A DNA stretch of 64,000 bases. Origin: Bacteroidales bacterium (GTDB lineage Bacteria > Bacteroidota > Bacteroidia > Bacteroidales > UBA3663). Made by a program: the position numbers and the translations under genes. The notes below the pieces were generated by a model. It saw only the letters and a program-made list of their open reading frames with translations. It was not told the origin of the DNA and ran no database searches. Below, piece after piece: positions 23,084 to 60,753 of the stretch; position 1 is the stretch's first letter; every line of letters starts with the position of its first letter. The stretch lies in contig JAZQBS010000036.1 of assembly GCA_045545875.1 (NCBI GenBank), positions 784 through 64,783 on the forward strand, read 5' to 3'.

Positions 23084-23176
23084 GGTTCCCAGCTTTTCTC
23101 TGCAAGCAGCAGTTCAACCGCTGCCCTAGTCCTTTTATTCAGTATGCAGCCATGTCATGGTTGCCCATCCATCCCT

Positions 23177-23593
23177 ATGAAACACGTCATTCCCCTCCTT
23201 CTTTCCCTCCTGTTGCTCATGTCTGCCCCCCTCGAAGCCCAGACCCTTCGCAACGCCAACAATGCTACCATCGGAAAAGTTGAGAGCAACGGCACCATCC
23301 GCAACGCTAACAACGCAACCATCGGCAAGGTCGAATCCGACGGCACCATCCGCAACGCCAACAACGCCCGCATCGGCAAGATCGAGTCCGACGGCACCAT
23401 CCGTAACGCCAACAATGCCACCATCGGCAAAATCGAATCCGATGGCACAGTTCGCAATGCCAGCAACGCTACTATCGGTAAAGTCCAGTCCGACGGCACC
23501 GTTCGCAATGCCAACAACGCGACCATTGGCAAAGCCGAAGGCGTCGATCGCAAAATCGCCGCAGTCCTCTTCTTCATGCACCTCCTCGAATAG
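23177..23593 (+). CDS. Secreted 17-aa repeat protein, probable beta-flower family
   Basis: Signal peptide, about 6 x TIRNANNATIGKIESDG (51-bp DNA repeats), hydrophobic C-terminal helix. Confidence 0.75.
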   Translation: MKHVIPLLLSLLLLMSAPLEAQTLRNANNATIGKVESNGTIRNANNATIGKVESDGTIRNANNARIGKIESDGTIRNANNATIGKIESDGTVRNASNATIGKVQSDGTVRNANNATIGKAEGVDRKIAAVLFFMHLLE

Positions 23594-27670: not shown

Positions 27671-29302
27671 CTATTCGCTGAAAAGGGAAAGGCCTTTGAG
27701 GTAGGTCTTGTCGCTGCTGTTAAACTCCTGATAGAAGTAGTTCTCGTCCTTGCATTGGCGCATGATGTAGGCGATGATGAGACGCTCCATCTCGGCACCG
27801 CTACGCTGCAGTTCGCGAGAAGTGGGACGACCAATCTTTGGAGCTGCGAAGTTGATGAAGGAATTGAGAAGACCCTGGCCTTCGAGATAATTCTGCAACG
27901 ACTTGAAATCCTTGTAGGAGGTTACCGTTTCGCGATGATTGTCGCTGTATTGGAACGCGAAGGAATACATCAGGCTGATGGACTTGTTGTAATAAGCTGA
28001 GACGTAGGTGGTGTCGCTGGGGACGAAGTAGTCGGGCATGATGCCACCGCCGCCATAGACCGTGCGTCCGCTCAAAGTAGTATAGACGAGCGAATCGGCG
28101 AAGTGGATGGAGTCCTGGTTGTAGAACTCGCCACGTTCGTAACGATTGATGAGGTCCATCTGATAGTCTTCGCCCTCCCCCATCGAATATGGCTTCTGGA
28201 TGCAGCGGCCCGAGGGGGTGTGGTAGCGTGCGATGGTGAGGCGCAAGGCTGAACCATCATAGAGATCAAACTGCTGCTGGACGAGACCTTTGCCGAAGGA
28301 GCGACGACCTACAATCTGGGCACGATCGTTATCCTGCATGGCTCCGGCAAAAATTTCGGAAGCCGAGGCAGACCATTCGTCGATGAGGACGACGACAGGA
28401 TCGTTCTGGAAGTTGCCACGTCCGTCGGCATTGTGGTCCTGACGTGGTTGCGAACGGCCTTCGGTATAGACGATGAGTTGATTGTTGCCCAGGAACTCGT
28501 TGACCATGGCGATGCAAATCTCAAGATAGCCGCCACCATTGCCACGGAAGTCGAGCAGATAGCCCTTGGCTCCATGGGCACGCAAGTTGACGAGAGCGGT
28601 GAAGAACTCGTTGTAGGTGTTGCGTCCGAAGTTGTCAATCTTGATATAGCCAATATTGCCCTCCATATATTGAGCAACGACGCTATTGACAGGAATCTCA
28701 CCACGCTCCACGTCGAAATGGAGCAAATCGCTTGCTGTATTACGACGAATGCCGAGTTTGACTACAGAGCCCGTCTCTCCACGCAGGGTCTTGAGCACCA
28801 CGTCGTTGTTGATCTTCTTGCCGACGAAGAGGGAGTCATCAACGGTAACGATGCGGTCTCCGGGCTGAATACCCACCTTTTCGGAGGGACCACCCGAAAT
28901 GACCTGGATGACCATGACGGTATCCTGCTGGATATTGAACTGGATGCCCACGCCACTGAACGAGCCTTCGAGCTGTTCGGTGACGGCGGTCATGTCTTCG
29001 CGTGAGATGTAGGAAGAATGCGGGTCAAGTTCCTCGACGATAGTGGGGATGGCATCCTCAACGAGGTTCTGGAGGTCGAGAGTATCGACGTAGCGGTCGC
29101 GTAGGAGGTCGAAGAGATAGACAAGCTTGGCAGAGGCCTCGCTGCTGGTGAGGCCGCCACGGCTCATCTTGTTGAGGTCGTGATGTTCGGATTGATAGAC
29201 ATGTATCTCGTTGGCCATACGGGCTTCGCCGAGCTTGATGCCGACGAAGAGGACGGCGGCTACGAGGAGGCTGGTGATAAAAGGAATCCAGTATTTTTTC
29301 AT
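27671..29302 (-). CDS. S41 family carboxyl-terminal processing protease
   Basis: LDPHS, PDZ domain, DFRGNGGG, SASASEI, FGKGLVQ, GGGI.PD. Confidence 0.93.
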   Translation of the reverse strand: MKKYWIPFITSLLVAAVLFVGIKLGEARMANEIHVYQSEHHDLNKMSRGGLTSSEASAKLVYLFDLLRDRYVDTLDLQNLVEDAIPTIVEELDPHSSYISREDMTAVTEQLEGSFSGVGIQFNIQQDTVMVIQVISGGPSEKVGIQPGDRIVTVDDSLFVGKKINNDVVLKTLRGETGSVVKLGIRRNTASDLLHFDVERGEIPVNSVVAQYMEGNIGYIKIDNFGRNTYNEFFTALVNLRAHGAKGYLLDFRGNGGGYLEICIAMVNEFLGNNQLIVYTEGRSQPRQDHNADGRGNFQNDPVVVLIDEWSASASEIFAGAMQDNDRAQIVGRRSFGKGLVQQQFDLYDGSALRLTIARYHTPSGRCIQKPYSMGEGEDYQMDLINRYERGEFYNQDSIHFADSLVYTTLSGRTVYGGGGIMPDYFVPSDTTYVSAYYNKSISLMYSFAFQYSDNHRETVTSYKDFKSLQNYLEGQGLLNSFINFAAPKIGRPTSRELQRSGAEMERLIIAYIMRQCKDENYFYQEFNSSDKTYLKGLSLFSE

Positions 29303-32446: not shown

Positions 32447-32580
32447 GAGATATTTGGGGATATTAAGGGATATTTGAGGATTTTTAGGGACGTTAGTATC
32501 GCCTAGATAAGAACTGGAACCAAGGAACAATCGTCCCCTAATATCCCTTCAAGTCCCTTATAATCCCTTATAATCCCTTA
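32447..32580. repeat. Inverted pair of 10-mer tandem arms (AAGGGATATT...AATATCCCTT)
   Basis: Forward arm 32447-32495 ends AGGGACGTTA; reverse arm 32533-32580; about 40 bp between them. Confidence 0.8.
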
Positions 32581-33822: not shown

Positions 33823-33828
33823 ATTAAC

Positions 33829-33884
33829 TAAGGGATATTTAGGGATTCTTAAGGATACAAAGGGATATTAAGGGACGTTACCTT
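33829..33884. repeat. 10-mer tandem arm (AAGGGATATT type)
   Basis: Five degenerate units ending AAGGGACGTTACCTT. Confidence 0.8.
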
Positions 33885-40462: not shown

Positions 40463-40978
40463 TTACGCATCAAAAAACACCTTTCCGCTGGCATCCTCGG
40501 GTCGTTCGACTCCCGGATATTCCGAACAGAAGTGATTTCTCAGCCTTTCGAGGTAACGCTTTGCCTCATATTTGGCCATGGGCAGATCGTGCATCAGATA
40601 ATTGCCGCAGGTGGCCGGTGTGGTGCCGGGAACCTCGTCGTCGTAGTCACGCACATATTCGAACGCGCCGATCATCAGTTGTCGAACTTCCTCACAGGAA
40701 TAATATCCCTTCATGATGAGGTAGTTGCCTGTCAGACAACCCATCGGCCCCCAATAGATGATGTTCTCCTTCCAGCCATCGAGATTGCGCAGATAGGTTG
40801 CCACGAGATGCTCGATGGTGTGGATGGCCGCAGGATTGAGGCACGGCTCATGGTTGGGCGCAGTCATACGGATGTCGTAGGTGGTGATGACGACACCTCC
40901 TGCCTCGTCCTGACGGCTCACGTAGATGCCAGGTTGCAGGTTGGTATGATCGACGGCGAAACTGGGGATGAGGTCCAT
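40463..40978 (-). CDS. luxS: S-ribosylhomocysteine lyase
   Basis: SFAVDH, HTIEHL, GPMGCLTG, CGNY. Confidence 0.95.
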   Translation of the reverse strand: MDLIPSFAVDHTNLQPGIYVSRQDEAGGVVITTYDIRMTAPNHEPCLNPAAIHTIEHLVATYLRNLDGWKENIIYWGPMGCLTGNYLIMKGYYSCEEVRQLMIGAFEYVRDYDDEVPGTTPATCGNYLMHDLPMAKYEAKRYLERLRNHFCSEYPGVERPEDASGKVFFDA

Positions 40979-41017
40979 TAATCAATTAACAATTAATAAT
41001 TAACAATTAACAATTAA
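40978..41017. repeat. Heptamer tandem arm (AACAATT/AATAATT)
   Basis: Fills the pheS-luxS gap and includes the pheS stop codon. Confidence 0.85.
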
Positions 41018-42033
41018 TGGGCGGCTGCAAACTCGTTGAGGAAACGCTTGTCATTCTCGGAGAAGAGGCGAAGGTCCTTCACGCGGTACTTGAGGTTGGC
41101 GATACGTTCAACGCCCATGCCGAAAGCATAGCCGGTGTAAACCTTCGAATCGATGCCGCAAGCCTCGAGGACATTAGGATCGACCATGCCGCAGCCCATG
41201 ATCTCGAGCCAACCGGCACCCTTGCACATCGAGCAGCCCTTGCCACCGCACAACGTACAACTTACGTCCATCTCAGCCGATGGTTCGGTGAATGGGAAGT
41301 AGCTTGGACGAAGACGAATCTGGGTGTTTGGACCAAACATCTCGACAGCAAACTGATGGAGCACCTGCTTGAGGTCGGCAAACGACACATCCTTGTCGAT
41401 ATAAAGGCCTTCGACCTGATGGAAGAAGCAGTGAGCACGTGCCGAAATGGCCTCGTTACGATAGACGCGACCTGGACAAACCACACGGATAGGTGGCTTC
41501 TGCTGGTTCATCACACGAACCTGCACCGAAGAGGTGTGGCTGCGCAGTACGACGATTGGGTCCTGCTGCACGAAGAACGTATCCTGCATATCGCGTGCCG
41601 GATGATCGTCGGCAAAGTTGAGCGCGCCATAGACGTGCCAGTCATCCTCCACCTCGGGACCCTCGGCAATCGAGAAGCCCATGCGGGCGAAGATGTCAAC
41701 GATCTCCTGGCGAACAAGGCTCAGGGGGTGACGTGTGCCCACCTCGTCGGGATAGGCAGGACGAGTCAGGTCAATATTCGTATCGATGTGGTCTTCTGAC
41801 TGATATTCTGCCTTGAGGGCCTCGATCTTCTCGGTAGCAGCAGCCTTCAATGCATTCAGCTTCTGACCAAGTTCGCGCTTCTGGTCAGCAGCCACATTGC
41901 GGAACTCTGCCATCAGGCCAGTGATCTCGCCCTTCTTGCTAAGATACTTGATACGCAGCGCCTCAATGTCTTCTGCGTTGTTTGCCTTCAGGGCCTGAAT
42001 CTCGGCCATCATGGCGTTAATCTTCTCTATCAT
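41014..42033 (-). CDS. pheS: Phenylalanine-tRNA ligase alpha subunit
   Basis: HPARDMQDTF, HTSSVQ, FHQVEG, YFPFTEPS, AFGMGVER. Confidence 0.97.
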   Translation of the reverse strand: MIEKINAMMAEIQALKANNAEDIEALRIKYLSKKGEITGLMAEFRNVAADQKRELGQKLNALKAAATEKIEALKAEYQSEDHIDTNIDLTRPAYPDEVGTRHPLSLVRQEIVDIFARMGFSIAEGPEVEDDWHVYGALNFADDHPARDMQDTFFVQQDPIVVLRSHTSSVQVRVMNQQKPPIRVVCPGRVYRNEAISARAHCFFHQVEGLYIDKDVSFADLKQVLHQFAVEMFGPNTQIRLRPSYFPFTEPSAEMDVSCTLCGGKGCSMCKGAGWLEIMGCGMVDPNVLEACGIDSKVYTGYAFGMGVERIANLKYRVKDLRLFSENDKRFLNEFAAAH

Positions 42034-50808: not shown

Positions 50809-50857
50809 TCGTCCAACCCTCGAAGAAGAATAAACCATTTTGACAAGGAACACCACT

Positions 50858-52621
50858 ATGAAAACTAATTGGTTTCTCTCACTCCTCGTTCTTTCAGCAG
50901 CGCTCCTCACGGGATGTGCCGATGCCGAACTGACCAGTTACCCGCAGATCCATGTCGCCCTGCAGATGTCGCTCGTCGATGACAGTCCGCATTATGAGGT
51001 GATGGTCGAGAACGGTTCGGGCATCAGCATCCAGGAAGTGGGCATCGTCCAGAGATATCAGGACAACAACAATGTATCCCAGGAAAGAAACCGATCGCGC
51101 ACCGACATCCTCAAGGTCCATGCCTTCGAGCCTATCACCTATACCGACGAGAGCCTGAATGCCTACGCCAACGACGTCATCACCGCCTGCGCCTTCATCC
51201 GCACCGAACTCGGCACTTTCCGCAGCGATGAGCAGACATTGGTTGTCCCCGGCACCAACGCCATCCAGATCGAGTCGGCACGTTTCGACTTCGACGAGCC
51301 GACGGGCAACAAGGGTACGCTGCGCATCTTCGGCAGTAACTTCTCCACGTCGGGCGGCGCCATCTCCATCAGCGGCACCGAGGGTCTCGACACCAGCGGA
51401 GCAAGGTTGAAATGCTATCACGACAGCATCGTGGCAAGTGGCGTGAAGTGCAATGCCTATGGAACCCTCAAGGCGAACCTCAGGCAATATGCCGGCAGTT
51501 ATCCCTTGGATGTTTATGTCGAGGGCTTGCTCATCGATAGCATTGTGCCCCTGCAATCAAAGGTCGGCGAACCTCTCACCATCTACATTTCCCATGCCAC
51601 ACCTGGCGTGAATTATACGGCCTACCCGGGTTTTCATTCATATTCCACCTACTCCCGTGTATTGGACCAGGACGAGCATCATATCTCCCTGTTGCCCGTC
51701 CCATATCGTTCACAGTCCCTCTCTCAGGCCAGCGGCCCCATCGTCGTCAAGGACCCGCGACGCGATATCACGATCATATCAAACGATTCGATTGTCATCA
51801 CACGCGACCCTTGGAGCAGTTGGGGCAATAGTGCCTCCAACCACAATTGCCGTGTCGGCGATCGTCTCTGCTCCTACATCGATGGCCTCTTCGCGAGTTT
51901 CAACCTCGAAAAGCACAGGACCGACATTTGGAAGAATGTCAATGCGGCGGGTCCCGACAATTCCGTCGATACACGCATGTTCGGCATTGGCGGTCGCTAT
52001 GCTTATGCCCTGTATTACTACTTGACCTTATGGACACCCGATTCTGCTTTTCTCTCCCGCTACGACCTGGTGGAATCCAAGTGGGAAAACCTCACTGCCC
52101 ACAAGCCGGTGCTGCGCAATGCATGGTTCGAGGACGACAACACCTTCCGAGGCATTTCGGGCACGACACTCTATACCTATCATCCCGACACCGACACCTG
52201 GGATGCTCCCTCTTCCACGCGTGAGAGCAGGAATGAGCAAGGCATCAGGCTCACCGAAGAATGCCAGTTCTGCGGCACTTACAAGGATTACGTGTATTTA
52301 GCACTCGACGGAAGTGTCTATCGATATCCTGTAGGCGACCCTACGGACATCCGGTTCGTAAACCGACCCAAAATCACGCTCACTGTTCCTTATCAGATCT
52401 ACAACGACACCTTCACTTATGGATACCATGAGAACGACGGAATCGGTTACTTCCTCTATGTCTATCAGATGCCAATGTCCTCGCTGCTCGAAGGCACCGA
52501 CGAGGTCACCTGTGTCGGCAGTCCAGAGGATGTCCCTGCCTTTCTGTATTCGCACTACTACGAGACAAGCGATTATCACGTGATCACCATCAACGGCGAA
52601 ATAAAATATCTGAAGAAATGA
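50858..52621 (+). CDS. Lipoprotein with IPT/TIG-like and kelch-like beta-rich regions
   Basis: Lipobox LTGC, 'LRIFGSNF' IPT-like motif, YDLVESKWE and YHPDTDTWD kelch-like motifs. Confidence 0.6.
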   Translation: MKTNWFLSLLVLSAALLTGCADAELTSYPQIHVALQMSLVDDSPHYEVMVENGSGISIQEVGIVQRYQDNNNVSQERNRSRTDILKVHAFEPITYTDESLNAYANDVITACAFIRTELGTFRSDEQTLVVPGTNAIQIESARFDFDEPTGNKGTLRIFGSNFSTSGGAISISGTEGLDTSGARLKCYHDSIVASGVKCNAYGTLKANLRQYAGSYPLDVYVEGLLIDSIVPLQSKVGEPLTIYISHATPGVNYTAYPGFHSYSTYSRVLDQDEHHISLLPVPYRSQSLSQASGPIVVKDPRRDITIISNDSIVITRDPWSSWGNSASNHNCRVGDRLCSYIDGLFASFNLEKHRTDIWKNVNAAGPDNSVDTRMFGIGGRYAYALYYYLTLWTPDSAFLSRYDLVESKWENLTAHKPVLRNAWFEDDNTFRGISGTTLYTYHPDTDTWDAPSSTRESRNEQGIRLTEECQFCGTYKDYVYLALDGSVYRYPVGDPTDIRFVNRPKITLTVPYQIYNDTFTYGYHENDGIGYFLYVYQMPMSSLLEGTDEVTCVGSPEDVPAFLYSHYYETSDYHVITINGEIKYLKK

Positions 52622-53254
52622 AAAAACAAAAAAAGAAAAAAAGTTTTTCGTGGGGTGTACTCCATGTAATCGTCTAAATTGAATTTGTAATTTATTGATT
52701 CCCAAGGCTTATTCCAAAATGGAACAAGCCTCCTCTTAGCGTATTCTGTTTCTTCAAGGAAAAAATTTTTGTAAAATAATTGGAGAAAATACTCTCACGG
52801 CCGACAGAATGCTTCCTCATTTCGCGCAAGTATCGTGACGGGCGACAGAGTACTTTATGCTACGAGATGGAGTACTCTCACGGCCGACAAAGTACCTTAT
52901 GCTGCAGGAAGAAGCACTATGACGGCCGACAGAGTACTTGCTACAACTGCGGAAATACTACGACGGCCGACAGAGTACTTCCGCATTTTGCGCAAGCATC
53001 GTGACGGCCGACAGAGTGCGCGATACTACAGGAAAGAGTACTCTCACGGCCGACAGAATACCTTATGCAGCAGAATGAAGCACTATGACAGCCGACAGAG
53101 TACATTATACAACTGCAGAAACACTCCGACTGCCGACAGAGTAATTCCGCATTTTGCGCAAGCATCGTGGCGGCCGACAGAATATTCAAAGTGATTATTA
53201 TAGATTATTGGTAAAATTGGTAAAATCTTTTTTTCTTTTTTTGTTTTTTCATTT
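52616..53254. mobile_element. Putative non-autonomous element bounded by perfect 28-bp inverted repeats, containing a palindrome array
   Basis: AAATG-A6-C-A7-G-A7-G at 52616-52643 is the exact reverse complement of 53227-53254; no credible ORF inside; no clear target-site duplication. Confidence 0.5.
52788..53186. repeat. Array of 10 quasi-palindromic 26-bp repeats, 41/42-bp period, 166-bp higher-order period
   Basis: Core (G/C)ACGGCCGACAGAGTAC with its A at 52797, 52838, 52880, 52922, 52963, 53004, 53046, 53088, 53129 and 53170 (G at this position in the last copy). Confidence 0.95.
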
Positions 53255-53352
53255 TTATTTGTCAAGACATATCCCCAAAACCTTACTTGCTGGCCAATCT
53301 CTTGGGAGTTTGAATTTCACGCTCACCTCCACCTCATCCATCTCTAGTAGTA

Positions 53353-54816
53353 TTAGAAATCTTTCTCGATGAAGTAAACGGGTTCGGTGAAATAAAGTCC
53401 CTCTTTCTTGTCTTCGTCCCTGAGCATGTAATCGACGAAAGCATTCTCGTCGGCACGCCAAAGGATTTTGTAAATCCTTGGGTTACTTTCATTAGTGTCG
53501 CTGTCGGCATCACCCTCTTTTTCTTTTGAATCTGAATCGTCGGTTCCTCCTAAATCAAACAATCGGCCTGCTCCTTCATAAATCATGCGTCCAATCTGGG
53601 AACATCTGAGGTAGTAGAGTTCTCCATTAGGGTTATCCAGATGTTCGGAACACATTGATGCAAATAGGTTTGCAGCAAGGCTTGCCGGATGCTTTTCAAG
53701 CGTTTCTTCACAGACTTTGAGGAGCTCCTCGTATTTCTCATTTCGCAGAAGGCTGTCGGCGTTGATGTCCCAAAGCTGTGTGCTGTTACATTCTGGAGTA
53801 AGCGCATGTCCGAAATAGACGATGCTGAGATCGCGCAGACTCATTCTTGGATCTCCTTCAATAAACCTTTTCTCGATGTCGCGATAGTCTGCTTCATGAT
53901 CCTTCATGTATTCTTTGATCTCATCGAAATCCACTTTGACGGTTTCGAATCTCCTCATGATATCCTCCGTCCTTGGTGCATATTGTTCATCAATGGCGAT
54001 GGCCTTGTCGCAGTATTCCCTGGCCTTATCTTCATTGCCGGAATCGGCGTACAATTGTGCCAAGGAGATGATGCAGTATCCTTCCTTGGGATTCTCTTTC
54101 TCAAGCAAAAGAAACTCTTCGATGGCTTGATCGGTGTTGCCCATAGCTGCATGAATGGCTGCATGATTGGTTCGGAACATAAAGGTTTGAGGATAGGCAG
54201 CGATGAAGCTTTCGACGTAGGTCATGGCATTCGCAAAATCGTCGGAATTCCAAAAGGATCCAATTTCCTCATTCATGTATAGCTCGAATTCCTCAAATCC
54301 ATCTTCGAGAGGCAGGTCGTGTCTGGTGAGCCAATTCTCTTTGATTTGCTTGGAGTAAGAGATTGTCTGAAGGAGCGTCTCAAGTGCCCTGTCATTCTCA
54401 TGACTAATAAATAATGTATATACACGATTTAGTCGGAGATCCAAGCGGTTCGGATATTTGGCAATACCTTCGTCAAGGATTTCAAAGGCCGAATCGAAAG
54501 CTCCAGGCTGGAAATCCTTTACAAATTGAAGACCCATATAGTCACCCATTTTTTGTGGCGAAACAGACAAATTCCTTCCTTCCTGAATTATTTTCGAGGA
54601 TTGGTAAAAGAATCGTAGATAAAAGAGATCTGCATCGTTAGGAGAATCCTTCTCCCAATCTTCGATAAGTACACGAATTGCTGCCGTGTCGGGCTCTTCT
54701 GCCTCCGTGATTATGTCGTACCTTTCGTAAATCTGTTCGACGGATTCCGTCTGAGCCATGGCAAATGAAGCCAACGATACGATGGCGATAGTGAGTAATG
54801 GTTTGATGTGAGTCAT
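53353..54816 (-). CDS. Secreted TPR protein with C-terminal DUF4919-like domain
   Basis: Signal peptide, YPNRLDLR, TPR helices, 'RFIEGD..SLRD...VYFG' motif. Confidence 0.7.
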   Translation of the reverse strand: MTHIKPLLTIAIVSLASFAMAQTESVEQIYERYDIITEAEEPDTAAIRVLIEDWEKDSPNDADLFYLRFFYQSSKIIQEGRNLSVSPQKMGDYMGLQFVKDFQPGAFDSAFEILDEGIAKYPNRLDLRLNRVYTLFISHENDRALETLLQTISYSKQIKENWLTRHDLPLEDGFEEFELYMNEEIGSFWNSDDFANAMTYVESFIAAYPQTFMFRTNHAAIHAAMGNTDQAIEEFLLLEKENPKEGYCIISLAQLYADSGNEDKAREYCDKAIAIDEQYAPRTEDIMRRFETVKVDFDEIKEYMKDHEADYRDIEKRFIEGDPRMSLRDLSIVYFGHALTPECNSTQLWDINADSLLRNEKYEELLKVCEETLEKHPASLAANLFASMCSEHLDNPNGELYYLRCSQIGRMIYEGAGRLFDLGGTDDSDSKEKEGDADSDTNESNPRIYKILWRADENAFVDYMLRDEDKKEGLYFTEPVYFIEKDF

Positions 54817-54993: not shown

Positions 54994-56118
54994 ATGAAGA
55001 AAGCCATAGCCGCACTGGCAATCATCGCCGCGCTCATCGCAGCAATACTTATGTTCTCATCGCGCTTCAAGGTGACGGAACACATCTACGTGGAATGGAA
55101 TGGAGAACGTGTCGGCATCAGAGGCGAGGGCTCGGCAGGTCTGAAATGGACCATCGACCGAGGCTTCCTCTCGATGACTGCCAACGAGACCGTGGGCAAG
55201 AGTCTGAAGATTCACTTGAGTGGAGAATGTGAGAACGGACAGTTCGAACTCACGGCCGCGAAAAGGACCTTCATCCTGCTCGAAGGCCTGAAGCTGCTGA
55301 ATCCTACCGGCGCAGCCTTGGTGCTGAAGGGCGACAAATCCACTTTTCTTACCTTGGCCGACAATACCGAGAATACCCTCGGCGATGCGGGCATCACAGC
55401 CGCTGGTGACCTCACCATCGGCGGCGACGGCTCGCTGACCATCGTCGCTCAAGGAACAGGACACAAGGGCATCAACATCGACGGGAACCTCAAGATCAAG
55501 GACGACCCGACTATCACCATCACCACCAGCGGACAACCCGAGCACATGCAAGTGCTTCCCCAGTCGGTATGGCTGGGCAAAGGTCTGGGCCTCCCTCAAA
55601 CTTCTCAAACCTCTCAAACCCCTCAAACCCCTCAAACCCCTCCCCTTCCACCTCCCGGCTTCGAGCGCTACGACTTCTCGGGCACAGCCAAGGCCATCAA
55701 GGCACAGGGTACCATCCTCATCGAAGGCGGCACCATCACGCTATCGACCTGCACTCCGGGAGCTGAAGGCCTCGAATCGAAAAGGGACATCATCATCAAC
55801 GGCGGCATCCTGAACGTGGAAGCCTACGACGATGCCATCAACGCCCTGATGACAATGACCGTGAATGGCGGCATCGTCAATGCCGTGAGTTCCCACAACG
55901 ATGGCATCGACATCAACGGAGGCCAACTCAAACCCTGGGCTACCTCCATACCCAAAAACTTCGATTCCCAGCGTGCCAAGGAGCTGGAAGGACAGCCCAC
56001 CTACTACCAGACGGGCGGCAGCGTCACGGCACGCACCACGGCAGGCTTCCCCGAGGAAGGTCTCGACACCGACAATGCTCCTATCAGTCACACGGGAGGA
56101 GAGTTGGTAATTTATTAG
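54994..56118 (+). CDS. Cthe_2159-like carbohydrate-binding beta-helix protein
   Basis: LTLADNTENTL, AEGLESK..I.INGG, DDAINA, NDGIDING. Confidence 0.8.
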   Translation: MKKAIAALAIIAALIAAILMFSSRFKVTEHIYVEWNGERVGIRGEGSAGLKWTIDRGFLSMTANETVGKSLKIHLSGECENGQFELTAAKRTFILLEGLKLLNPTGAALVLKGDKSTFLTLADNTENTLGDAGITAAGDLTIGGDGSLTIVAQGTGHKGINIDGNLKIKDDPTITITTSGQPEHMQVLPQSVWLGKGLGLPQTSQTSQTPQTPQTPPLPPPGFERYDFSGTAKAIKAQGTILIEGGTITLSTCTPGAEGLESKRDIIINGGILNVEAYDDAINALMTMTVNGGIVNAVSSHNDGIDINGGQLKPWATSIPKNFDSQRAKELEGQPTYYQTGGSVTARTTAGFPEEGLDTDNAPISHTGGELVIY

Positions 56119-56170
56119 GGATTCTAAGGGATTTTAAGGGAATCTAAGGGATTTTAAGGGACAAATGTTC
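56116..56170. repeat. 10-mer tandem arm (TAAGGGATTT), left arm of a cognate inverted pair
   Basis: Five units ending AAGGGACAAATGTTC; contains the stop codons of both convergent genes. Confidence 0.85.
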
Positions 56171-57319: not shown

Positions 57320-57895
57320 ATGAAAGCAAGGACATTCGTTGGAATCACACTTTTCGTAGCCGGCATACTCAAGCTGGCAAGCATCTGGGACATCATCCAT
57401 CTGGACTGGTTCGAAAACCTTTTCGCACAACGCTGGATGATCTACCTCACTCCTATTCTATTAATATATGTAGGCATAAAACTGCTGATCGAAAGCTTTA
57501 TGCGCGACCGTGACCAATGGCTTCGACGCCCCCTGCCTATCGGTGACGAGGGAAAACGCATCCACTGTTCAATTCACTACGGTGCCGACGAATATGTGTA
57601 TCAGGGAGAGACGTTCAAGGGAGCCCGGCTGGATGCCTTCTGCGGCGGCATCAGCATGGATCTGCGCAAGGCTGTCATCACCGAGGACGAGGAGATCGAC
57701 ATCCACACCTTCCTGGGCGGCGTGGAGCTTTATGTTCCTTCCACAGTGAACGTAGTGGTCAAGAGCCGAAGCTTCATTGGTGGTGTGGGGAATGAGACAG
57801 ACAGAAATCCAAAGCCCAACGTCCCCAGCCTTCACATCGTGGCAAGCAACTTCTTTGGTGGAGTAAGCATCAAGGAAGGGAAATTAACAATGTAA
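57320..57895 (+). CDS. LiaF-related (DUF2154-like) cell-envelope stress protein
   Basis: 2 TM followed by FCGGISMDLR..FLGGVELYVP..FIGGV..FFGGVSIK. Confidence 0.82.
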   Translation: MKARTFVGITLFVAGILKLASIWDIIHLDWFENLFAQRWMIYLTPILLIYVGIKLLIESFMRDRDQWLRRPLPIGDEGKRIHCSIHYGADEYVYQGETFKGARLDAFCGGISMDLRKAVITEDEEIDIHTFLGGVELYVPSTVNVVVKSRSFIGGVGNETDRNPKPNVPSLHIVASNFFGGVSIKEGKLTM

Positions 57896-57930
57896 ATTAA
57901 CAATTAACAATTAATAATTAACAATTAAAA
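57881..57930. repeat. Heptamer tandem arm (AACAATT/AATAATT)
   Basis: acaattaacaattaataattaacaatt; overlaps the end of the liaF-like gene. Confidence 0.85.
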
Positions 57931-58157: not shown

Positions 58158-60584
58158 ATGCTTTACAAATATCTTAGAATGGCAGCTGCAACTGCTGTCA
58201 TAGCCATAACTATGCCCTTATCGGCCATGAACCAGGACGTCGATGGCAAAGTAACCGACGAAAATGGCCAACCTCTGCCCAACGTGAATGTGGTGCTTCT
58301 ATCGCCCGACTCAACCTTTGTGCAAGGCGCCGTCACCGACGAGCAAGGTATGTTCAAGATCATTTCGAGCGAGAACGGAAGCCTCCTGAAACTGACAAGC
58401 ATCAGCTACGAGACCCGCTTCATCCCCCTAACGCCTTCAACATCGTCCCTGTTGGACATACAGATGAAGGAAGACACCGAGATGCTCGACGAAGTGGTGG
58501 TGAAGAGCCAGCTGCCAAAGACGCTGGTCAAAGGTGATGCCATGCGCACCACCGTGGCAGGAACCATCCTCGAGAAGGCAGGATCCGTGAGCGATGCCCT
58601 GTCGAAAATCCCTTCGCTCGAAGCCGAAAGCGACGGCGCCGTGAAGGTGCTGGGGCGCGGCGATGCCGAAGTGTATATCAACGGCCGACGTGTGCAGGAC
58701 ATGAAAGAACTCACGCGTCTGCGCTCCGACCAGATACAGCACGTGGAAGTGGTGCAGAACCCCGGTGCACGCTACTCAGCCTCGACGAAGGCCGTGGTCC
58801 GCATCACGCTCAAGAAGGCGCAGGGCGAGGGCATCAGTTTCCAGGACAACCTCACTGGAATATATCAGTATGGCCACACGCTGACCAACAACCTCGACGT
58901 GAACTATCGCACGGGAGGTCTCGACATCACAGCCTCGTTCTGGGCTGGCCGTTATGGTCATACCGGGGGAGTCCAGGAAAACGACATGTACTACCTTTGC
59001 GGCGATGAGGTTTACAAAGGCATCACCAAGCAGGAGAGGATAAAAAACGTGTGGAAGGGCTGGTCTCCACAGTTGCAAATCAACTATATGGTGAACGAGA
59101 ACCACAGTTTTGGTGCGTTCTACAAATACGATCGTCACCCCAGCGACAACGTGATCGTCGATTACAATACCGACAACTACAAGAACGGCTGCTACATCGA
59201 ACGTTCGGAGAGTCGCATCAATGAGAATGACAATTTCCGCAAGCACATCTTCAACGCCTATTACAATGGAAAGGTGAGGCAACTGGGTATTGATTTCAAT
59301 CTCGACGGACTTTTCGATGACACCAACGAAGATGGCAGCACCGACGAGACGATGACGCCTGTGGGCGACTATCTGGATGGTTCGATGTATGACAGTCCCA
59401 CCAGGCGCTCCATTGAGAGCAACACCGCCAGTGCCAACAACTTCTGGGCAACGAAGCTCATTCTCAGCTATCCCATACTGAAAGGCAACTTCTCGCTGGG
59501 TGGTGAATATTCGTACAATCATCGCACCGACGCCTACTCGTATATGGCATCTGACTACGTGCCTGTAAAAGCCACCGACACGGAGATCAACGAGAAATCG
59601 TCGGCCCTGTTCATGGAGTATGGTCGCTCTTTTAATCTCTCAACTCTAAACTCTAAACTCTCAACTCTATTTGTACAGATTGGTCTGCGCTACGAGCACC
59701 TGAAGAACGACTACTACGACTTTGGCAAACGTCAGGACGAGGTGTGCCGCAACTATGGTGACTGGTTTCCGACTGCCGTCATCGCCGCCCCCATCGGCAA
59801 GGTACAGGTCTCGCTATCGTATCGTCGCGACATCGAGCGTCCGAACTACAGCAATCTGTCGAGTTCGACCATCTATCTGAACCGTTACAGTTTCCAGAGC
59901 GGCAACCCCTACCTGAAACCCACCTACACCCACAGCCTCGTGCTGAATACGAGCTATAAGTGGGCGAACATGACGCTGAACTACGGTCGCATCAAGGATG
60001 TCCTCACCATGTCCACCGAACCATTCCCCGGCTCGGAAGATCCCCTCATCAGCCTCGTACACCCCATCAACAGCGAGGAGGATTTCGACCAGCTAAGCAT
60101 CGGCCTCTCTGCCAGTCCCACCATTGGTCGCTGGCACCCGATGTGGTACGCCTTCTGCGTATTCCAAAACTACAAGACGCCGACCGCTGATGGCACGATG
60201 CTGACACTCGACCGACCGTACCTCACATTGGTTTGGCAGAACGCCATCGAGTTGCCCCACGGCTACCGGCTGAATGCCTCGATGCAAGGAGCCAACAAAG
60301 GTGACTACAACAACTTCCACATCATCGCCAATCGGTTCAATACCGATCTGGGCATCCAGCGTGACATCAATCTGCACCGGCTGGGTTCGCTCACCATCGA
60401 TGTGCGCTGCACCGACATCTTCAACACGAACAAGACGGAAGCCATACTCTATGGACCGCGCGAAATCACCGTCCGCAATCCCACCCGCCGCACCTTCGTG
60501 CTCGACCTGACCTGGAAGTTCAACGAGGCCCGTTCGAAGTACCGTGGCTCCGGCGCCGGCGAAAAGCAGAAGGCGAGGATGTGA
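58158..60584 (+). CDS. TonB-dependent-like outer-membrane beta-barrel protein
   Basis: Carboxypeptidase-regulatory-like N-domain, plug (YINGR, NPGARY), GNPYLKP, C-terminal SKYRGSGAG. Confidence 0.85.
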   Translation: MLYKYLRMAAATAVIAITMPLSAMNQDVDGKVTDENGQPLPNVNVVLLSPDSTFVQGAVTDEQGMFKIISSENGSLLKLTSISYETRFIPLTPSTSSLLDIQMKEDTEMLDEVVVKSQLPKTLVKGDAMRTTVAGTILEKAGSVSDALSKIPSLEAESDGAVKVLGRGDAEVYINGRRVQDMKELTRLRSDQIQHVEVVQNPGARYSASTKAVVRITLKKAQGEGISFQDNLTGIYQYGHTLTNNLDVNYRTGGLDITASFWAGRYGHTGGVQENDMYYLCGDEVYKGITKQERIKNVWKGWSPQLQINYMVNENHSFGAFYKYDRHPSDNVIVDYNTDNYKNGCYIERSESRINENDNFRKHIFNAYYNGKVRQLGIDFNLDGLFDDTNEDGSTDETMTPVGDYLDGSMYDSPTRRSIESNTASANNFWATKLILSYPILKGNFSLGGEYSYNHRTDAYSYMASDYVPVKATDTEINEKSSALFMEYGRSFNLSTLNSKLSTLFVQIGLRYEHLKNDYYDFGKRQDEVCRNYGDWFPTAVIAAPIGKVQVSLSYRRDIERPNYSNLSSSTIYLNRYSFQSGNPYLKPTYTHSLVLNTSYKWANMTLNYGRIKDVLTMSTEPFPGSEDPLISLVHPINSEEDFDQLSIGLSASPTIGRWHPMWYAFCVFQNYKTPTADGTMLTLDRPYLTLVWQNAIELPHGYRLNASMQGANKGDYNNFHIIANRFNTDLGIQRDINLHRLGSLTIDVRCTDIFNTNKTEAILYGPREITVRNPTRRTFVLDLTWKFNEARSKYRGSGAGEKQKARM

Positions 60585-60588
60585 GAAA

Positions 60589-60753
60589 TTAGGGATATTA
60601 AGGGATAATAGGGATATTTGGGGATATTAAGGGACGTTACCTTTGCCTTGAAGAAATTGGGGCAAGCAAACAATTGTTATTTGTTAATTATTAATTGTTA
60701 ATTGTACATATGTCCCTTAGATTCCCTTAGAATCCCTTAAAATCCCTTAGAAT
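60589..60753. repeat. Composite repeat junction: forward 10-mer arm, reverse heptamer arm, reverse 10-mer arm
   Basis: 60589-60643 AGGGATATTA units ending AAGGGACGTTACCTT; 60671-60705 AATTGTT units; 60704-60753 ATCCCTTAG units. Confidence 0.85.

Follow-up and report, generated by a model that had tools for sequence, protein, structure and literature searches.

Interspersed palindromic repeats are well studied in the Proteobacteria, and their function is still disputed. Of the repeats classed in Enterobacteria and Pseudomonas as repetitive extragenic palindromes (REP) or bacterial interspersed mosaic elements (BIME), the latter are bound by gyrase and IHF. Dispersed intergenic elements with variable numbers of ~40-50-bp tandem units are also seen in pneumococcal BOX (boxA-boxB(n)-boxC) and in the mycobacterial interspersed repetitive units (MIRUs). 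In the available part of a survey of GTAG and CGTC REPs (PMC3733652), head-to-head dimers predominate and head-to-tail arrangements are negligible; the CGTC repeats of the Bacteroidetes are mostly head-to-head dimers without a dedicated transposase. [quoted passage not shown] The subject of this report is an array of ten 41/42-bp palindromic units at 52788..53186 of a 64,000-nt stretch of DNA from a Bacteroidales bacterium (the whole stretch is here the window; positions 784 to 64,783 of contig JAZQBS010000036.1, forward strand, assembly GCA_045545875.1). It represents a single insertion from an interspersed mosaic repeat family that is specific to one clade and, being intergenic, placed at 3' ends, and gained and lost between species, behaves in the manner of REP/BIME, BOX, MIRU or BrickBuilt. 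The family is new, and what sets it apart is its 42-bp units, which stand head to tail, are dyad-symmetric throughout and come in two interchangeable types.

The likeness to REP/BIME lies in the many short imperfect palindromes, extragenic and situated mostly after genes or between convergent genes, in the mosaic clusters of different palindrome types with fixed linkers, and in the clade-restricted range. Unlike REP/BIME, the units here are arranged head to tail with a fixed 41/42-bp period in runs of up to 10-12, their stems do not covary, and no REP-associated tyrosine transposase (RAYT) is found; a search for the RAYT/Y1 transposase family (PF01797) gave no match in the genome to which the window belongs (G000; 3.70 Mb in 227 contigs, 82.8% complete), with controls positive in 6 of 14 genomes, although in an incomplete genome the absence is provisional. 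The GTAG or CGTC end tag that serves as criterion in the part of PMC3733652 at hand appears at neither end of logos of 166 and 150 units, and CGTC occurs next to the centre only, in T-variant units. With BrickBuilt, going by the accessible text of PMC4596501, the family shares Bacteroidales hosts, dispersed tandem arrays that are always intergenic, variable unit number and a narrow host range; BrickBuilt differs in its 23-nt units, not described there as palindromic, and in having its own leader and tail with IS5-like terminal inverted repeats and some target duplications, none of which is present here. In contrast to BOX and MIRU, the arrays lack end modules of the boxA/boxC type, their units have dyad symmetry over the full length and are kept in a strict four-turn register, and two interchangeable palindrome types occur together with a linked DNA-binding gene. 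In the mostly open-access literature, supplements excluded, neither a Prevotellaceae family of this sort nor any family of the same anatomy was found described, and the element goes unmentioned in the main text, so far as available, of a satellite survey (PMC6749651), of RepRanger (PMC12306157) and of a microbiome RNA-motif catalogue (PMC8040213).

Ten plus-strand copies of the core ACGGCCGACAGAGTAC, each with at most 3 mismatches, start at 52797, 52838, 52880, 52922, 52963, 53004, 53046, 53088, 53129 and 53170; their number, their spacings (41,42,42,41,41,42,42,41,41) and the 166-bp super-period reproduce exactly what the initial annotation of this DNA had described, by core search and by Tandem Repeats Finder (TRF). 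Two extra core matches on the minus strand are a product of the palindromy, and the 12 matches on both strands were reached in none of 100 dinucleotide shuffles (mean 0.30, maximum 3). As delimited by repeat and core searches and by the unit logo, the array has no assigned strand, and its unit consists of an 11-6-11 quasi-palindrome on CGGCCG (variants CGGGCG, CAGCCG and CTGCCG) plus a 14-16-bp linker, the centre hexamers starting at 52798, 52839, 52881, 52923, 52964, 53005, 53047, 53089, 53130 and 53171. TRF reports period 166 over 52797-53181 (2.3 copies, 86% matches) and a second period of 42 over 52838-53143, while a repeat search finds the direct repeat of 166 nt, 52787-52952 against 52953-53118, at 83% identity. 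The first higher-order copy (52787..52952) thus comprises four units with linkers A'-B-C-D and the second (52953..53118) four with A-B-C-D; a partial third copy (53119..53186) consists of the final part of unit D, then unit A, and the last palindrome, and the linker TCCGCATTTTGCGCA reappears at the distance of one super-period. The super-period of 166 is not divisible by three, no gene is placed over the array by a codon-usage gene caller, and none of the three open reading frames (ORFs) that cross it has a Pfam match at E<=0.1; the array is therefore non-coding, as first proposed, and not a repeat-protein pseudogene, an outcome that the initial annotation had left to be checked. A search of Rfam, over the whole window at the gathering score and over 52550-53350 at E<=1, yields nothing above threshold at the array; mir-2483 and Fibrobacter-1, both at chance level, are the only matches in the latter interval.

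A search with blastn of the window array against G000 gives 49 matches on 27 contigs. A scan by centre hexamer and arms finds 192 units of the CGGCCG type (P1; centre CGGCCG, variants CGGGCG and CGCGCG) in 44 clusters, 25 of which have at least three units. A second palindrome (P2), ATGACCAATCTTGGCCAAGATTGGTCAT, has the same 11-6-11 layout around TGGCCA, and its 76 units in G000 form arrays of their own or alternate with P1 in the same 42-bp register. These counts are lower bounds, since CGCGCG-centred units were left uncounted. The family numbers some thirty copies, the window array being one; the special organiser, partition or iteron site at first suspected here gives way to one member of an interspersed family, and a drifting minisatellite of a single locus does not fit, the period being conserved at dozens of loci and in relatives. 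Seven "type I" arrays of G000 (C36, C13, C74, C106, C81, C42 and C9), with linker cycles of four or five types, are collinear from first to last unit; therefore the whole array is the dispersed entity and the ABCD cycle a trait of the family. Units are arranged head to tail, and arrays start and stop at unit boundaries without separate leader, tail or duplication. The logo shows that the unit is palindromic across the full 42 bp, the GGA and TCC triplets of the linker mirroring each other about the centre, and the 14-bp linker is a small palindrome in its own right; hence the array matches itself on both strands, and the intervening segments, originally regarded as variable spacers, belong to the unit. 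In a check for restriction avoidance the observed/expected ratio of GGCC is an unremarkable 0.74. Beside four arrays (G000 C46 at ~29100-29270, C89, C72 and C13) there is another family of ~40-bp tandem palindromes, whose units contain ACGTTCGT between GCATGTCC and GGACATGC.

Unit length is held far tighter than sequence, for spacing played no part in unit detection and linker sequences differ widely between array types. Of the distances between neighbouring centres, all 130 measured in G000 and 431 of the 432 at loci elsewhere in other genomes are 41 or 42 bp (561/562 in total), and the P2-to-P2 spacings are multiples of 42 in 58 of 58. Across the arms, compensatory covariation is absent overall. 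In 150 distinct units drawn at random from 482 and compared with 500 column shuffles, 70.8% of the cells of the 11-pair stem are paired. The shuffled columns give 71.9 +/- 0.5%, 498 of the 500 shuffles reach the observed figure, and the covariation score lies below the shuffled mean; beside the centre the commonest state is an A-A mismatch (115 of 166 units). The arms drift independently around a palindromic consensus, which fits a dyad-symmetric recognition sequence or plain descent and not a selected hairpin. If transcribed, either strand is predicted to fold strongly (-0.26 to -0.57 kcal/mol per nt), and the strand antisense to the core orientation is the more stable in 17 of 25 arrays. Of the two functions guessed at in the initial annotation, the phased DNA-binding array gains from the near-invariant period, the differing linkers and the lack of compensatory arm change, and the processed hairpin RNAs lose ground.

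Arrays overlap no called gene save one weak ORF on C153. Where a gene is called on either side (20 arrays), 14 of the pairs are convergent, 5 co-directional and 1 divergent, against a convergent background of 225 of 1877 gene pairs (12%) with the same crude caller (binomial p 2e-9, the loci being not fully independent). No neighbour is conserved except a helix-turn-helix (HTH) gene at 7 of 25 arrays. Many arrays of G000 sit at contig ends, and arrays therefore appear to break short-read assembly; they fragment the short-read assemblies of abundant rumen bacteria and mark at least one rearrangement breakpoint (C12).

The range of the family is narrow, a small group of uncultured rumen bacteria. 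Among 40 relatives, five of the 24 genomes from the same genus carry dozens of matches each and none of the 16 from other families does; by pheS these five rank nearest to G000 (98, 98, 91, 86 and 85%, the next being 83%), so that the carrier genomes look like one clade. An exact two-core pattern, sought in one genome per species across 185,579 species, occurs in 50 stretches, all in eight records of metagenome-assembled genomes (MAGs) labelled Bacteroidales or Prevotellaceae, which may overlap with the relatives compared; five of the eight have names suggestive of an origin in the rumen or omasum of sheep or buffalo, or in reindeer, and the sequencing runs that hold the window locus are ruminant gut metagenomes. 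The pattern was found in no stretch of viral contigs, and blastn of the window array against phages and against plasmids, a comparison proposed at the outset for its spacers, gave no match.

Comparison of loci between carriers shows both retention and turnover. At the window locus serC, pheS and a homologue of the upstream 593-aa gene precede the array on one contig of G024, where the orthologous array has ten units and is identical at 372 of 399 positions with no indel; the array of G010 has exactly one 42-nt unit fewer (9 units). The non-repeat leader before the array (52665..52787, plus strand), homologous in G024 and G010, is far more diverged, with 94 matches, 27 mismatches and 3 indels. 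Relatives of the downstream TPR gene in G015 and G021 lie on contigs without a listed array match. Locus C151 is empty in G015 and in the non-carrier G005 and holds 3, 5 and ~12 units in G000, G010 and G013, the last mostly of the second palindrome type. Loci C153 and C22 carry an array in G000, G010 and G013, and in G015 and G021 both are empty, the flanks lying 13-91 nt apart; at C153 the array stands in the position that a two-way terminator hairpin has in the unoccupied sites of G015 and G021, and ordinary terminators persist beside the C22 and C151 arrays. The C138 array is retained in G010, G015 and G021. In each of the four carrier relatives examined (G010, G013, G015 and G021) the two flanks of the C12 array (C12:37176-37628) are found on separate contigs, some with an array at the break, which makes this a G000-specific synteny breakpoint. 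Comparison of filled with empty sites at three loci (C151, C22 and C153) shows no target-site duplication, arrays have no terminal repeats other than the palindromes themselves, and no transposase or recombinase is linked to them.

The HTH gene encodes a 138-aa protein. Six arrays of G000 lie directly 3' of its paralogues, and another comes after a fragment of such a paralogue; two copies have their stop codon inside the first palindrome. For all 19 homologues of at least 62% identity (six in G000, six in G024, four in G010 and one each in G013, G015 and G021) an array starts 12-250 nt past the stop codon, and in five loci from other genomes, two of them identical and maybe from one genome represented twice, array subtype tracks paralogue type. 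More distant paralogue sites checked for cores have an array in two of nine cases (G000 C171 and G013 C33), those without one being G024 C30 and C44, G010 C8 and C30, G021 C12, and G000 C121 and C97; G015 C20 is also without an array. A search of 41 genomes at E<=1e-10 finds the protein family in the six that bear arrays and in no other. It has no NCBIfam match; its 183 relatives are nearly all metagenomic, three being named "AraC-like DNA-binding protein" by JGI, and PF12833 is precomputed for 10 of the 120 relatives listed. An AlphaFold model built from 26 sequences (pLDDT 89, pTM 0.81) predicts two helix-turn-helix motifs joined by a long helix. The best PDB matches of this model are AraC-family DNA-binding domains (AdpA, MarA, SoxS and ToxT) with template modelling (TM) scores of 0.56-0.77, and all of the top ten are AraC-family, with probability 1.00 and TM 0.50-0.64 by query length. 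The protein thus resembles MarA and SoxS in its two-HTH predicted fold and about equal size, and differs from them in scoring below the HTH_18 cut-off, in matching no NCBIfam model and in being confined to one clade; to our knowledge no MarA or SoxS gene followed by a repeat array has been described. A predicted homodimer scores 0.14 against a mark of 0.42, which lends a dimer no support and does not count against one. Upstream of the 138-aa gene are an Amidase_2 gene or 272-/507-aa genes without an assigned family, none of them a transposase, and PHROGs and PADLOC, run on the HTH protein and these upstream neighbours, return nothing but a chance-level DpdH match (E 6e-4). In one copy only (G000 C81, ~60100-60190) a ~90-nt palindromic insert rich in CCCCC/GGGGG stands between the HTH stop codon and the array.

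The arrays are read here, tentatively and at somewhat short of an even chance, as a putative phased row of protein-binding sites on double-stranded DNA. This reading is based on the four-turn register, on arms that do not change in compensation, on a divergence lower than that of neighbouring non-coding DNA together with the absence of small indels, and on the invariable linkage of gene and array. Each array would act as duplex DNA, as a row of dyad-symmetric sites four helical turns apart, and a protein bound at each unit would lie on one face of the helix. The small DNA-binding gene that is always attached offers a concrete candidate for the binder, the clade-specific stand-alone 138-aa AraC-type (MarA/SoxS-like) protein, an assignment that is plausible and yet doubtful. 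One AraC-type domain has a footprint of ~21 bp, and we infer that the 42-bp unit would be two 21-bp half-sites, each about one such footprint. Gene-linked arrays would be stable copies and the other arrays sites in trans; at points of converging transcription the arrays might work as insulators or roadblocks, and they would grow and shrink by recombination in unit register. The full proposal, a cognate protein-repeat system in which a MarA-like family coats the 42-bp units and the nucleoprotein tracks at convergent junctions act as insulators, roadblocks or topological barriers, with the gene-linked arrays as stable master copies that gave rise to the rest, is on the whole unlikely. Whatever its outcome, a unit length of four turns across hundreds of units, non-covarying arms, which point to double-stranded DNA rather than hairpins, and an attached DNA-binding gene make the family a useful test case.

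A number of observations weigh against a binding array and its proposed protein. The 138-aa protein reaches 18.0 bits against Pfam HTH_18 (PF12833), where the gathering cut-off is 33.6, and the Foldseek E-values of its model are weak (6e-3 at best). Because the six carrier genomes, the closest by pheS, form one apparent clade, the co-occurrence of protein and array counts as one event and may have been inherited once, and the linkage may stem from duplication of a gene-plus-array module; ~18 of 25 arrays are not beside the 138-aa gene, and no array lies upstream of a promoter, where the site of a classical AraC-type activator would be. The array diverges from that of G024 by 6.8%, close to the ~8% found at four-fold degenerate positions in serC and pheS (~92% identity of G000 with G024), and sequence constraint is therefore modest at best. 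Recombination in register with the unit could also maintain the period with no need for phasing. One stem pair alone (columns 7 and 28; CG 51, UA 43) does covary. Finally, array pieces are present in contigs of three metatranscriptome libraries from three studies, those of library X16 covering 53140-53213, the last unit and unique flank, with 0-1 differences; these are contigs without strand information in which DNA carry-over is possible, and the gaps in cover over the 593-aa gene, the shared end at 53264 and the skips within the array are unusable as evidence.

The array pieces in RNA-library contigs count in favour of a REP-like RNA element, in which the arrays form part of the 3' ends of the flanking mRNAs and their hairpins would block 3' exonucleases or act between convergent genes as two-way terminators or insulators. 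Such an element is a credible though improbable alternative. It agrees with the location at 3' ends, mostly between convergent genes, with the strong predicted folding on both strands, with the replacement of a two-way terminator hairpin by the C153 array, and with the finding of no terminator-like site at 52300-53600 of the window; REPs, too, generally lie downstream of genes, and their action is ascribed to RNA, according to the available part of PMC3733652. Hairpins leave the strict linker length unexplained, however, and those of the arrays show no overall compensatory covariation and lack U-tracts; in 17 of 25 arrays the less stable strand is the one in the sense of the linked HTH gene, ordinary terminators remain beside two of the arrays compared (C22 and C151), and the evidence from RNA libraries has the limits already given. 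Comparably unlikely, and still to be taken seriously, is a selfish or neutral dispersed minisatellite (MITE-, BOX- or BrickBuilt-like) that does nothing for the host, copied as arrays by some enzyme and owing its register to recombination between units, which could proceed by unequal homologous exchange or by a tyrosine recombinase acting on the 11-6-11 sites, a layout that we take to resemble recombinase core sites. Clean empty sites at C151 (G015, G005), C153 and C22 (G015 and G021 for both), unit numbers that vary at C151 (3/5/~12) and at the window locus (10/10/9), the C12 flanks split in four of four carrier relatives, type-I arrays collinear at seven G000 loci, a substitution rate near that of four-fold sites and the narrow taxonomic range all speak for it. 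The comparisons of filled and empty sites yield no target-site duplication, nor are there terminal repeats beyond the palindromes, a RAYT or a linked transposase or recombinase; arrays with unrelated linkers all keep the 41/42 period, and the retention of 19 of 19 HTH-linked arrays down to 62% protein identity, and of C138 in three relatives, is more stable than expected of junk.

Two further explanations, suggested by the regularity of the array, fare worse. A locus-specific organiser, centromere (parS-like) or iteron array would have phased dyad-symmetric sites of this kind, and is very unlikely given at least 25 arrays in the genome and matches on 27 contigs. The window is moreover an ordinary stretch of housekeeping Bacteroidales chromosome, with a Bacteroidales-type small signal recognition particle (SRP) RNA, FopS, 5S rRNA, pheS, serC and pyrB; the neighbours scanned include no rep or par gene, and the array matches no plasmid or phage. 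Regular palindromic repeats with short intervening segments also recall a CRISPR-like or guide-RNA array, or an RNA array of the ToxI or UG27 type, which has scarcely any likelihood. The 14-16-bp segments recur in cycles and are common to several loci, and there is no match to an Rfam family; as already noticed in the initial annotation, no cas gene is nearby, none of the scanned neighbours (6 proteins against Pfam, 25 against NCBIfam) belonging to a Cas family. A toxin or reverse-transcriptase gene as conserved neighbour of the arrays, as for ToxI or UG27, is likewise missing, and UG27 units, in the portion of bioRxiv 10.64898/2026.09.22.753630 at hand, are ~150 nt long and lie beside a reverse transcriptase.

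The flanks of the window array conform to the convergent arrangement first proposed. Upstream, on the plus strand, is the 593-aa gene (50840..52621), without a Pfam or NCBIfam match, whose product is 57-58% identical to its syntenic counterparts in G024 and G010; it is hypervariable although the pheS of those genomes is 98% identical in DNA, and has paralogues at 41-45%. Downstream, on the minus strand, is a gene for a 487-aa protein with TPR repeats and a weak DUF4919 match (53353..54816). An A-rich 33-nt inverted repeat brackets leader and array; its left arm (52616..52648, plus strand) overlaps the stop codon of the upstream gene, its right arm (53222..53254, minus strand) is kept in G010 and degenerate in G024, and the arms are 97% complementary with 573 nt between them. 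By blastn-short the genome has no further copies beyond the two arms, which could be the mark of an invertible segment, or chance. Within the leader, a hairpin at ~52700-52735 keeps its stem pairing through two-sided changes between G000 and G024/G010; no T-run comes after it, and an overlapping Rfam Fibrobacter-1 match (E 0.38) is far below threshold.

Other short repeats are scattered through the window. Intergenic 10-bp tandem units on AGGGAT / ATCCCT occur at 32449-32580, 33827-33875, 56117-56161 and 60590-60753, and genome-wide there are 42 runs of at least three such units, both strands counted. Tandem 7-bp repeats (AATTGTT, ATTAACA and AATTAAC) lie between genes at 2527-2559, 40977-41018, 57882-57928 and 60672-60705. 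A 51-bp tandem repeat at 23249-23538 (5.7 copies, 81% matches) is located inside an ORF (23144-23593) and, its period being a multiple of three, probably represents a 17-residue protein repeat.

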